NCBI GenBank assembly: GCA_002414865.1
Contig: DIAQ01000033.1
Location: forward strand, 26,958-90,957
Source: a candidate division Hyd24-12 bacterium UBA5074
GTDB taxonomy: Bacteria; Fermentibacterota; Fermentibacteria; Fermentibacterales; Fermentibacteraceae
Direction: 5' to 3'
DNA length: 64,000 bases
The first letter of the stretch is position 1; every line of letters starts with the position of its first letter. Below are positions 39,711 through 42,958 of this stretch, one piece after another. A program made the position numbers and the translations under genes. The notes below the pieces were generated by a model. That model did not search any database and was not told where the DNA came from. It worked only from the letters and a program-made list of their open reading frames with translations.

Positions 39711-41090
39711 TTGGGCGCGGACGAGCTGCAGAAGCTGCCCTCGATCTCCAGGCTGCTCGAGCTGGTCGGGGAGGCTGGCCCGTTCCCCCATGTCCTGTCG
39801 AGGATGGCCTGCAGGAGTGTGGTGGAGTCAGAGAGGAGGCGTCTGCTCGCAGGCGGTGAGGCGAAGCCCGAGGCGGAGCTCGTCCTCCTCGCAGCATCCG
39901 AGGCGGGTCGCCTGTCCTCGAGCAGCCTCTTCGAGGTGATCAATGCGACCGGCATCATCCTCCACACCGCCTTCGGCCGGGCCTGCCTGCCTGCCGCCGC
40001 CCGGGCCGCCCTGGCCTCGGTGGCCGAGGGGTACTGCAGTCTTCAGTGGGACCAGGAGACGGGTTCCCGCGGCGAGAGGGACTCCCACGTCGAGTGGATG
40101 GTCCGTGAGCTCACAGGCGCCGAGGCAGCCACCATCGTCAACAACAACTCAGGAGCCACGCTCCTCATGCTCGCGGCCCTGGCCCGGGGAGGGGAGGTCG
40201 TGGTTTCCAGGGGGCAGCTCGTGGAGATCGGCGGCTCCTTCCGCATCCCCGACGTCATGCGGCAGAGCGGCGCCGTGATGCGGGAGGTCGGCTGCACCAA
40301 CCGGACTCATCTGAAGGACTACAGGTCGGCGATCGGCCCTCAGACCGCCGCCCTCCTCAGAGTCCATCCATCCAACTACAGGATCAGGGGCTTCACAAGC
40401 GAGGTGCCCCTCCCGGATCTCGTAGCCCTCGGACGCGAGCACGGCATCCCCGTCCTCGACGATCTCGGGGCGGGGGCGCTCGCAGACCTTTCGCTGTTCG
40501 GCCTGCCGACCGAGCCCACCGTCGCCAGGAGCATCGAGGAGGGCGCCTCCGTTGTCTGCTTCTCAGGCGACAAGCTGATCGGCGGTCCTCAGGCAGGCGT
40601 GATCGTCGGCTCCCGCGACCTCGTGGACAGGATAAGGAAACACCCCCTGGCCAGGGCGCTGCGGGTGTGCAAGCTCACGCTCGCCGCCATGGAAGCCACG
40701 CTGAAGCTGTTCCTCGAGGATGAGCAGTCCCTGCGGGCGAACCATCCCCTCTACGCGATGCTGGGGGAACCTCACGAAGAGGTGAGGGCCAGGGCGGAGG
40801 CCCTGCTCGGAGGTCTCGCGCTCCCCGACTGCTGCACGGCCGCCGTCGTCCCCTCGGACAGCTACATGGGCAGCGGCTCGCTTCCGGACAGCGCTCTTCC
40901 CTCCTGGGCGGTGTCCATCCGGTGCCCCGGCCCGGACGAGCTCGCCGCCGCTCTCCGGAGCTCGAGACCGGCCGTCTCCGGCCGGATCGAGGATGACGCG
41001 CTCGTTCTCGACATGAGGACCGTCTTCGAGCGCCAGGTCGCCCCTCTCGCGAAGATCGTCGCCTCGGCCGCGTCCGCGCTATGGGCGTAG
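39711..41090 (+). CDS. selA: L-seryl-tRNA(Sec) selenium transferase (selenocysteine synthase)
   Basis: TTG start 10 nt after AAGGAGG. VINATGIILHTAFGRA and GGEVVVSRGQLVEIGGSFRIPDVMRQSGAVMREVGCTNRTH closely track E. coli SelA. Confidence 0.88.
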   Translation: MGADELQKLPSISRLLELVGEAGPFPHVLSRMACRSVVESERRRLLAGGEAKPEAELVLLAASEAGRLSSSSLFEVINATGIILHTAFGRACLPAAARAALASVAEGYCSLQWDQETGSRGERDSHVEWMVRELTGAEAATIVNNNSGATLLMLAALARGGEVVVSRGQLVEIGGSFRIPDVMRQSGAVMREVGCTNRTHLKDYRSAIGPQTAALLRVHPSNYRIRGFTSEVPLPDLVALGREHGIPVLDDLGAGALADLSLFGLPTEPTVARSIEEGASVVCFSGDKLIGGPQAGVIVGSRDLVDRIRKHPLARALRVCKLTLAAMEATLKLFLEDEQSLRANHPLYAMLGEPHEEVRARAEALLGGLALPDCCTAAVVPSDSYMGSGSLPDSALPSWAVSIRCPGPDELAAALRSSRPAVSGRIEDDALVLDMRTVFERQVAPLAKIVASAASALWA

Positions 41091-42958
41091 TAGCAGGCAC
41101 CGCCGGCCACATCGACCACGGCAAGAGCTCTCTCGTCAGGTGGCTCACCGGGCGCGATCCCGACCGCCTGAAGGAGGAGAAGCTCCGGGGCATCACCATC
41201 GAGCTCGGATACGTCTTCATGCCCCTGCCGGACGGAGGCGTGCTCGCGTTCATAGACGTTCCCGGACACGAGAAGTTCGTCCGCCAGATGGTAGCAGGCG
41301 TCGCCACCGTGGATTTCTTCCTCCTGGTCGTGGCAGCCGACGAAGGGGTCATGCCCCAGACCCGCGAGCATTTCGATATCCTGAGGCTTCTGGGGGTCAG
41401 GGACGGAATGGTGGCTCTGACGAAATGCGACATGGTGGACCGGGAAGTCCAGGACATGGCGGAGGAGGAGGTCTCGGACCTGTTCGCCGGGGCCGGCCAT
41501 GCCTCGATCCCCGTCCACAGGGTCTCCTCCGTCACCGGGGAAGGCATGGAGGATCTGCGCGCGGCGTTGATCGCCAGGGCCGCCAGCATCAGGAGGAGGG
41601 ACGCCAGCGACCGCTTCAGGCTGGCCATCGACAGGGTCTTCACCCTCCAGGGCCACGGCACTGTCGTCGCCGGTACGGTTCTGTCCGGTTCGGTGCACAG
41701 CGGTGAGACCGTGGAGCTCCTGCCCGCCGGGAAACCTTACCGGGTCAGGGAGATACGAGTAAACGAGGGAAGGACCCAGGGGGCCGGCACGGCAGGGGAC
41801 AGGGTCGCCCTCAATCTGGTCGGTCTCGAGAAGGAGGACGCCTGGAGGGGGAGCTGCCTCGCAGTGCCGGGATGGCTCCAGGCCCGGAGCGGCTTCGACG
41901 CCGAGTGCACCATGCTTCCGGACGCCATGCTCGAACACAGGCAGAGGGTGCGTTTCCACACAGGGACCGCCGAGGTCATGGCCTGGGCCATACCGATCTC
42001 TACCGAGGGGCTCGCCCCGGGCATGACGGGCTTCGTCCATTTCGAGCTCGAGGAGCCCGTCGTCGCCGTTCCCGGCGACAGGTTCGTCATCAGGAGGTAT
42101 TCCCCGGTGTCCACCATCGGGGGAGGGCTGATACTGGAGGCCGGCACCGCCCGCATCAGGGCGAAGGCCAGGGACGAGCGCCTCAGGCGGGTTGAAATGC
42201 TCTCCGGGGGCGACATCCGGGGCATTCTCCTGGCCAAGCTCGCATCGAAGCGCTGGGAGGGATTCGCCCTGGCCGAGGCCTCCCGGGAGCTGGGCAGGGG
42301 AGCGGAGGAGATCGCGTCCGCGATGTCCTCCCTGGCAGCGGACGGGGAAGCGCTCATCCTCAGGGACGGCTCCGCGGAGAGAGCCGTGGCTGCATCGACA
42401 GCTTCCGAAGCCATGGCAAGGCTGACCGCAGCACTTTCGGACTATCACGCCGAGAGACCGCTCAGCGCAGGTCTTCTCTCCTCGCAGGTCGCTCGTCTCC
42501 TGCCCGAGGCGCCCCAGTGGTTCCTGAGGGGGATTCTCGGGAGGATGGCCGAGTCCTCGACCATCCGCAGATCCGGCGACAGGATCGCCCTCGGCTCCTT
42601 CCCCGCGGAGATCCCGGACCCTCTTCCCGCAAGCGTCCGCTCCCTTCTCGAAGCGGTCGGAGGCGCCGGCTTCCAGGGCTGGGAGCCGCCTCAGGGGACC
42701 GGCTCTGCGCTCGTCGAGTCCCTCCTCGAGCGGGGGCTGCTTCTCGAGCTCGAGAAGGGGCTGCTCACCTCTCCATCCGTCGCGAAGGATGCGGAGGCCT
42801 CTCTGAGATCCACATTCGGCACGGCCGGGTTCCGCCTCGGGGAACTGCGCCAGGCCCTCGGCGTTCCACGGAAAGCTGCCGTGCTCTGGGCCGAGCTGCT
42901 CGACCGGCTGGGCCTCACAGGCCGGAAGGGGGACCTCCGCTTCCTGACGGCCGGCTAG
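41081..42958 (+). CDS. selB: Selenocysteine-specific translation elongation factor SelB
   Basis: GTAGHIDHGKSSLVRWLTG G1 motif, EKLRGITIELGY, and an extended winged-helix C-terminal region of 625 aa. Overlaps selA by 10 nt. Confidence 0.88.
   Translation: MGVVAGTAGHIDHGKSSLVRWLTGRDPDRLKEEKLRGITIELGYVFMPLPDGGVLAFIDVPGHEKFVRQMVAGVATVDFFLLVVAADEGVMPQTREHFDILRLLGVRDGMVALTKCDMVDREVQDMAEEEVSDLFAGAGHASIPVHRVSSVTGEGMEDLRAALIARAASIRRRDASDRFRLAIDRVFTLQGHGTVVAGTVLSGSVHSGETVELLPAGKPYRVREIRVNEGRTQGAGTAGDRVALNLVGLEKEDAWRGSCLAVPGWLQARSGFDAECTMLPDAMLEHRQRVRFHTGTAEVMAWAIPISTEGLAPGMTGFVHFELEEPVVAVPGDRFVIRRYSPVSTIGGGLILEAGTARIRAKARDERLRRVEMLSGGDIRGILLAKLASKRWEGFALAEASRELGRGAEEIASAMSSLAADGEALILRDGSAERAVAASTASEAMARLTAALSDYHAERPLSAGLLSSQVARLLPEAPQWFLRGILGRMAESSTIRRSGDRIALGSFPAEIPDPLPASVRSLLEAVGGAGFQGWEPPQGTGSALVESLLERGLLLELEKGLLTSPSVAKDAEASLRSTFGTAGFRLGELRQALGVPRKAAVLWAELLDRLGLTGRKGDLRFLTAG

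Follow-up and report, generated by a model that had tools for sequence, protein, structure and literature searches.

A selA-selB pair at the 3' end of an rnf operon in Fermentibacterota and a candidate selenoprotein family encoded upstream

This report concerns a stretch of 64,000 nucleotides (hereafter the window) from the candidate division Hyd24-12 bacterium UBA5074, a member of the phylum Fermentibacterota (GenBank assembly GCA_002414865.1, contig DIAQ01000033.1, positions 26,958 to 90,957 of the forward strand), in which the genes selA and selB, whose products serve the synthesis and insertion of selenocysteine (Sec), follow directly upon the six genes of an rnfCDGEAB operon. With pyridoxal phosphate (PLP) and selenophosphate, SelA turns Ser-tRNA(Sec) into Sec-tRNA(Sec), and SelB-GTP binds both Sec-tRNA(Sec) and a hairpin that closely follows an in-frame UGA, bringing the tRNA to the ribosome. 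Approximately 7 kb upstream of selA lie two tandem genes, here called U1 and U2, that each contain an in-frame UGA. It is very likely, in our judgment, that selA and selB are functional orthologs of their namesakes, that they form the promoter-distal cistrons of rnfCDGEAB, and that their products act on the UGAs of U1 and U2. The arrangement is best read as a putative lineage-specific operon fusion of known parts rather than as a new system. The features of the rnf-selAB locus are as follows.

34415..35728, forward strand: rnfC, first gene of the rnf operon (TIGR01945, 508.7 bits, cut-off 245.95)
35725..36804, forward strand: rnfD (TIGR01946, 335 bits, cut-off 207)
36797..37411, forward strand: rnfG (TIGR01947, 109.1 bits, cut-off 102)
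37408..38016, forward strand: rnfE (TIGR01948, 252.7 bits, cut-off 213.4)
38013..38651, forward strand: rnfA (TIGR01943, 258.3 bits, cut-off 229.3)
38653..39708, forward strand: rnfB, 351 aa, long polyferredoxin form (TIGR01944, 146 bits, cut-off 68.7)
39694..39700, forward strand: Shine-Dalgarno-like sequence AAGGAGG within the 3' end of rnfB, 10 nt ahead of the TTG of selA
39711..41090, forward strand: selA, L-seryl-tRNA(Sec) selenium transferase, 459 aa, TTG start, TAG stop at 41088-41090
41081..42958, forward strand: selB, Sec-specific elongation factor, 625 aa, ATG start
41081..41090, forward strand: selA/selB overlap of 10 nt (ATGGGCGTAG), the selB ATG lying 7 nt ahead of the selA stop
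42967..42995, forward strand: promoter-like site (TTTACA, 17 nt, TATTCT; 9 of 12 consensus positions) in the 77-nt gap between selB and ugd

All six Rnf subunits are encoded contiguously in the order C-D-G-E-A-B, each scoring above its NCBIfam subfamily cut-off, and the rnfB product carries the Pfam FeS domain followed by several Fer4 domains. The start of rnfC was taken from identical public contigs (in L001 the call is 3335-4648, offset 31080), and the coordinates of selA and selB match the gene calls on such contigs. The stop codon of rnfB (TAG, 39706-39708) is separated from selA by 2 nt (CC); this gap and the 10-nt selA/selB overlap read in the sequence as the initial annotation had reported them. 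The operon, whose product Rnf is the energy-conserving ferredoxin:NAD+ oxidoreductase, an ion pump, shares its six subunits and their C-D-G-E-A-B order with the rnfCDGEAB operons of other anaerobes, and differs from them in bearing two unrelated translation-machinery genes at its 3' end. Downstream of selB lies ugd, the UDP-glucose dehydrogenase gene, and the promoter-like site between the two, a consensus match only, may indicate where the rnf-selAB unit ends. With this layout, selAB would most likely be transcribed together with rnfCDGEAB, ribosomes completing rnfB, 2 nt ahead, would probably go on to translate selA via the AAGGAGG inside rnfB, and selB would probably be translated by re-initiation within the 10-nt overlap. 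We infer co-transcription, translational coupling and the enzymatic activities of SelA and SelB from the sequence of the locus.

The identity of both products is clear. SelA matched the NCBIfam equivalog model TIGR00474 with 510.6 bits (cut-off 267.9, E 3.7e-153) and Pfam PF03841 with an E value of 4.5e-134, and reached only 61.3 bits against TIGR01437 (selA_rel), the model for the SelA-related DgaE (cut-off 385.3). Residues 6-449 align with residues 5-445 of Aquifex aeolicus SelA (3W1H; E 8e-105). The PLP lysine, K288 in FSGDKLIGGPQAG, is equivalent to A. aeolicus K285, and R90, R315 and R318 align with A. aeolicus R86, R312 and R315; we take the roles of the PLP lysine and of the active-site arginines to be those derived from structural work on the A. 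aeolicus enzyme. The N-terminal tRNA(Sec)-binding domain is present, residues 6-75 aligning with A. aeolicus residues 5-70, and the Pfam model of the N-terminal SelA domain gave no match to the window SelA. Set against the decameric Sec synthase of A. aeolicus (3W1H, 3W1K), the protein thus aligns over its full length with key residues matched, and differs only in sequence divergence. SelB scored 302.5 bits against TIGR00475 (cut-off 242.25, E 6.4e-90), while EF-Tu models gave about 143-150 bits against cut-offs above 449. Its Pfam matches are GTP_EFTU, GTP_EFTU_D2, Beta-barrel_SelB, SelB-wing_2 and SelB-wing_3 (PF25461, PF09106 and PF09107 among them), and the GTP-binding motifs G1 (GHIDHGKS, residues 9-16), G3 (DVPGHEKF, 59-66) and G4 (TKCD, 114-117) are all present. 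The DR and R residues of SelB align with E. coli D180/R181/R236. The C-terminal winged-helix extension carries PF09106 at residues 450-504 and PF09107 at residues 584-622, and the last winged helix aligns to residues 570-603 of E. coli SelB (5LZB), the SECIS-binding end (SECIS, selenocysteine insertion sequence). The initial annotation had called both genes clear orthologs, and this assignment is borne out by scores above both equivalog cut-offs and by the retention of catalytic and GTP-binding residues. Inactivating changes, which it had named among the findings that would refute it, were not seen: the reading frames of selA and selB are free of frameshifts and internal stops, and no key residue has been lost in either. 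By all appearances the two are ordinary, intact textbook genes, with little new in themselves.

What is new is their position, which is conserved. Identical loci occur in the metagenome-assembled genomes (MAGs) GCA_002479745.1, GCA_002430795.1 and GCA_002363235.1 and in wetland-sediment and digester metagenomes. In a scan of species representatives that did not return the window's own species (top match 59% identical), the closest were Candidatus Aegiribacteria and Candidatus Fermentibacteria MAGs, with SelA proteins 57-59% identical. The GC content of the window is 66%; that of Hyd24-12, the earlier name of Fermentibacteria, has been given as roughly 64% (PMC5030696). The order tRNA cluster-nrdR-rnfCDGEAB-selA-selB-ugd was found in 7/7 related Fermentibacterota/Aegiribacteria species representatives. 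Across the eight species that include the window, the 10-nt selA/selB overlap (ATGGGNGTNTAR) is invariably present, with a GTG start in one of them (L013). At the rnfB/selA junction, five of the eight have a 4-nt ATGA or GTGA overlap, and the others have gaps of 2 nt (the window), 5 nt (L009) and 33 nt (L013), such that in 7/8 the two genes either overlap at stop and start or lie no more than 5 nt apart. These junctions look selected for coupled translation, and the coupling that had been proposed for the window alone gains support from overlapping or abutting junctions conserved across eight species. The phylum-wide fusion of rnf and selAB through conserved overlapping junctions is a modest new observation on gene organisation.

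For comparison we assembled 73 selA loci from other phyla, 67 of which have at least 2 kb of upstream sequence on which the presence of rnf could be scored. None of these 67 has an rnf gene upstream of selA, in contrast to all seven Fermentibacterota relatives. The selD-selA-selB-selC clusters of other anaerobic phyla (L015-L086) resemble the window in that selB directly follows selA (26 of the 55 loci with enough flank), and differ from it in that they include selD (24/73) or tRNA-Sec (19/73), neither selD nor selC having been found within 10 kb of the Fermentibacterota loci. The E. coli selAB operon has the same gene order, is likewise tightly joined, and encodes a SelB with the same domain layout and G motifs (5LZB); the Fermentibacterota selAB differs from it in having no 5' region of its own, being appended to rnfCDGEAB. 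A SECIS-like element in the leader of E. coli selAB reportedly feeds back on expression. No such element was found near the start of selA in the window, where the motif is confined to the UGAs of U1 and U2; separately, a candidate autoregulatory SECIS-like hairpin at the rnfB/selA junction was rejected, its folding being no better than that of shuffled sequences (z 0.5-0.7).

The proposed substrates of SelA and SelB lie upstream of the rnf operon and comprise the following features.

31896..32537, forward strand: U1, candidate secreted selenoprotein (213 codons; signal peptide; motif WCGS-UGA)
32004..32006, forward strand: in-frame UGA of U1, proposed Sec codon, the UGA being kept at the aligned codon in homologs
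32018..32037, forward strand: SECIS-like hairpin of U1, 8-bp stem, loop AGGC, from 11 nt past the UGA
32534..33172, forward strand: U2, tandem paralog of U1, motif LCCS-UGA, its ATG overlapping the U1 stop (ATGA)
32642..32644, forward strand: in-frame UGA of U2, proposed Sec codon
32656..32675, forward strand: SECIS-like hairpin of U2, 8-bp stem, loop AGGU, from 11 nt past the UGA

U1 and U2 are 41% identical, and each has an N-terminal signal peptide followed by C-x-x-UGA, in the contexts PWCGS-UGA-SPQMRYQ (U1) and PLCCS-UGA-VESLHYQ (U2). Public gene calls show each of them in two pieces, a 36-aa open reading frame (ORF) and a hypothetical protein of 166-173 aa; U1 is cut at the UGA into 31896-32006 (36 aa) and 32016-32537 (173 aa), which correspond to 816-926 and 936-1457 in L001. 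With the calls ending at the UGA, the candidate selenoproteins are mis-annotated in every public copy seen. The database homologs of U1, which are 37-70% identical save for one 99% copy from the same species, are without exception (23/23) annotated as fragments of 152-173 aa beginning at the first Met past the UGA.

To look past these annotations, the aligned codon was read from the DNA of a 1-Mb contig and 68 metagenome loci. It is TGA at 58 sites, and at 65 once a one-residue offset is corrected at seven further sites, which read C-x-x-U or the variants FSC-U and FGC-U. At three sites it is TGC, in the sequence PFCGD-C-NQSLR (L135 and L138/L139, identical sequence there). Conserved protein sequence flanks the UGA on both sides across the 65 homologous sites. 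As to the motif itself, some members of the family have Cys directly ahead of Sec (FSC-U, FGC-U), and a small diverged subgroup has C-x-x-C; variants are located at L124 231, L127 533, L134 964, L136 3091 and L137 2986, and at L135 529 and L138 3052. A scan for other in-frame UGAs in the window, based on GC content at third codon positions (GC3), yielded five candidates that were rejected as lying opposite high-GC3 ORFs on the other strand, which was checked for two; U1 and U2 alone were retained.

Past each UGA, with 11 nt in between, comes a conserved hairpin that SelB would read: GCGCUACC-AGGC-GGUAGUGC in U1 and GCACUACC-AGGU-GGUGGUGC in U2, a motif that occurs in the window only at these two UGAs. 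Among 47 ungapped sequences, 89.6% of the hairpin cells were paired, compared with 18-75% when the partner columns were slid, and the observed covariation score was reached by 0/500 shuffles. One pair changes from CG to UA in ten sequences, through a synonymous Tyr change (UAC to UAU) combined with a replacement of Val (GUA) by Ile (AUA). Of the Cys forms, one has lost the hairpin (3/8 pairs) and the other keeps 6/8. The elements resemble the SECIS of E. coli fdhF in lying 3' of the UGA, in starting at 11 nt, and in an apical G-G-U/C run, the fdhF element having an 11-nt spacing and a loop GU; they differ in a shorter, perfect stem-loop (8 bp, 4-nt loop) with no bulged U. A conserved UGA, Cys homologs and a covarying hairpin constitute the standard bacterial selenoprotein signature, and the link between selAB and the UGAs is therefore well supported. 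Sec decoding of UGAs about 7 kb upstream, which the initial annotation had regarded as plausible, is now strongly supported by 65 UGA sites versus 3 Cys sites and by the covarying hairpin. Within the window, the substrates of SelA and SelB would thus be the UGAs at 32004 and 32642 of two tandem secreted C-x-x-U proteins.

U1 and U2 probably represent an undescribed selenoprotein family and are the most novel item near selAB. The U domain had no match to any Pfam or NCBIfam model at E<=10. AlphaFold predicts with confidence (pLDDT 89) that the domain past the UGA folds as a beta-sandwich, whose matches in the PDB, to beta-sandwiches of carbohydrate-binding modules (CBM) and of the PHR type, were weak (E>=0.011, TM<=0.52); with no family model and such weak fold matches, we assign no function to the domain. 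More distant homologs, 24-32% identical, occur in L147-L155 (for example at L147 3001-3468 and L149 3001-3381) and have neither Cys nor Sec at the motif position; by eye these stretches seem to be internal to larger ORFs, on contigs of up to about 33 kb. These homologs may show an ancestral, non-redox role of the fold.

Several observations weigh against the reading of selAB as promoter-distal rnf cistrons that act on U1 and U2. Unlike the fdhF-type element, the U1/U2 hairpin sits within a conserved coding segment, R-Y-Q-V-V, so that part of its conservation is protein constraint. The selC and selD genes, discussed below, were not found in the window or in the 10 kb beyond either end (about 84 kb). 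The remaining points concern the rnfB/selA junction. In L013 the 33-nt spacer contains a Shine-Dalgarno-like site of its own (GGGGAGG), so strict coupling of rnfB and selA is not universal, and the promoter and terminator scans deal in consensus matches only. Both bear on the alternative that the adjacency of rnf and selAB is conserved gene order without shared expression, a product of compaction, with selAB driven from a promoter of their own in the 3' part of rnfB. To the L013 spacer this alternative can add that the sigma-70 consensus used in the scan may not apply to the phylum. It must also accommodate tight junctions in 7/8 species for rnfB/selA and 8/8 for selA/selB, maintained despite about 40% protein divergence. 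Moreover, the consensus scan of the window found no terminator-like site between rnfB and the end of selB, and the sigma-70 consensus, which may not suit this phylum, gave no promoter-like site from rnfB through selB, its sole match lying after selB. We regard a separate selAB promoter as unlikely.

As the initial annotation had stated, selC and selD are not in the window: searches with ARAGORN, with Rfam at E<=10 and with tblastn were all without a match. ARAGORN reported in the window only tRNA-Arg(TCT), tRNA-Lys(CTT) and tRNA-His(GTG), at 33.3-33.7 kb, and a search of both strands of the entire window with Rfam brought up no tRNA-Sec, whether at the gathering score or at E<=10. ARAGORN did recover tRNA-SeC next to selA/selB in 19 of the 73 loci from other phyla, which indicates that the method works. 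A nested selC within selB, an arrangement reported for some other phyla (PMC13188914), was ruled out here, with no Rfam match even at E<=10. For selD, tblastn with E. coli SelD gave a best E value of 0.57 in the window, and the same query detected selD in 24 of the 73 control loci; the query itself matched PDB 3U0O from end to end with 768 bits. Beyond the window, on identical public contigs, the left flank carries pheST, uvrB, ispH, purB and purL and the right flank the dcw cluster, ftsZ and tmRNA, and neither selC nor selD was found in the 10 kb past each end. An AIRS-domain match in the flank was rejected as SelD, the protein being PurL. Neither gene turned up in some 84 kb, so that the complete Sec pathway of this genome is a presumptive one; we infer that selC and selD are located elsewhere in the genome.

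The same absence speaks for regarding selAB as relics, in which case selC and/or selD would have been lost and the upstream UGAs would be genuine stops, as public annotations indeed read them. Such a history is hard to reconcile with selA and selB genes that are intact in all key residues and conserved in eight species, or with a UGA flanked by conserved protein at 65 sites, replaced by Cys at 3, and followed by a covarying hairpin. Nor is the distance from selAB telling: 49/73 control loci have no selD beside selA, and in E. coli, too, selC and selD lie elsewhere on the chromosome than selAB. We consider relic status very improbable.

The initial annotation had further taken the link to Rnf as a hint of an anaerobic selenoproteome. 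This is still conjecture. The host is an anaerobic fermenter, in keeping with the suggestion, and against it stand the lack of a UGA in the rnf genes and the fact that the window offers no Sec candidates other than two secreted proteins. One could suppose a functional linkage, in which an Rnf subunit is or was a selenoprotein, or in which the low-potential electrons of Rnf serve selenium handling, and the genes are co-regulated for that purpose. Sec forms are indeed described in other organisms, according to a 2026 review, for RnfB-like Fe-S proteins (NF005503, UxxC), for Rnf-Nqr proteins (PF02508) and for the RnfC-like PrdC (PMC13188914); the window RnfB scores 244.7 bits against NF005503, and the rnf-selAB linkage is conserved across the phylum. 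Yet the N-terminal motif of RnfB has the Cys form NCGGCG in 8/8 species, and Sec-containing Rnf subunits were rejected in the window and seven relatives, no in-frame UGA having been found in the called rnf genes of these eight species. One stop codon did show up with the rnfC of L011, whose alignment sets in ahead of the called start; the exact position of this codon was not checked. The window's only Sec candidates, moreover, are secreted beta-sandwich proteins unrelated to Rnf. In the literature searched we found none that links rnf with selAB, or selenium with Fermentibacterota. A functional link between Rnf and selenium is unsupported, and we judge it improbable as an account of the arrangement. 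On a conservative explanation of the linkage, selAB ride on an operon whose expression is constitutive.

A broader proposal, which we offer tentatively and think more doubtful than not, is that selAB were captured across the phylum as coupled terminal cistrons of rnf, so that Rnf expression would set the capacity for Sec, with the U family possibly as the main client. Under this proposal the U family would be nearly always Sec-containing, often encoded in tandem pairs, and located beside an ArsR-type regulator. Translation-machinery genes welded to an energy-metabolism operon offer in any case a natural example for asking how the dosage of SelA and SelB is set, and the C-x-x-U family is a concrete target for the discovery of selenoprotein function. 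The locus would also document that selenium is used in this uncultured phylum, a group abundant in anaerobic digesters for which the searched literature mentions no such use, and public annotations of Fermentibacterota genomes appear to truncate at least two genes at Sec codons.

The flanks and neighbourhood of these genes present some further features. Just past the right end of the window (about 3 kb) lies a tmRNA gene (L159 13287-13639, L161 10575-10927); the tag peptide that ARAGORN assigns to it is unusually long and rich in Cys and may be a mis-prediction. ARAGORN also called an 84-nt tRNA-Gly(GCC) at L159 20424-20507, within a called ATPase gene, which is doubtful. The tRNA-Arg(TCT) gene at 33289-33365 is on the forward strand in the window, and in five relatives (L007, L011, L012 and L013 among them) it shares the reverse strand with tRNA-Lys and tRNA-His. 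The place of this strand flip coincides precisely with the 3' boundary of the U1-U2 pair, which points to a rearrangement or an insertion close to the tRNA cluster. Divergent from U1, on the reverse strand between 29873 and 31754, is a cluster that encodes a regulator of the ArsR family (31425-31754), a permease of the ArsP_1 family (30133-31515) and a small Thioredoxin_3 protein (29873-30112) in which the motif CPKC occurs. Proteins of the Thioredoxin_3 family (PF13192) have Sec forms in other organisms (PMC13188914), and the one in the window is a Cys form. An ArsR homolog is also found beside the U pair in L089/L090, L092, L106, L115 and the P0021 contig, and this recurrence hints at metalloid- or redox-responsive control.

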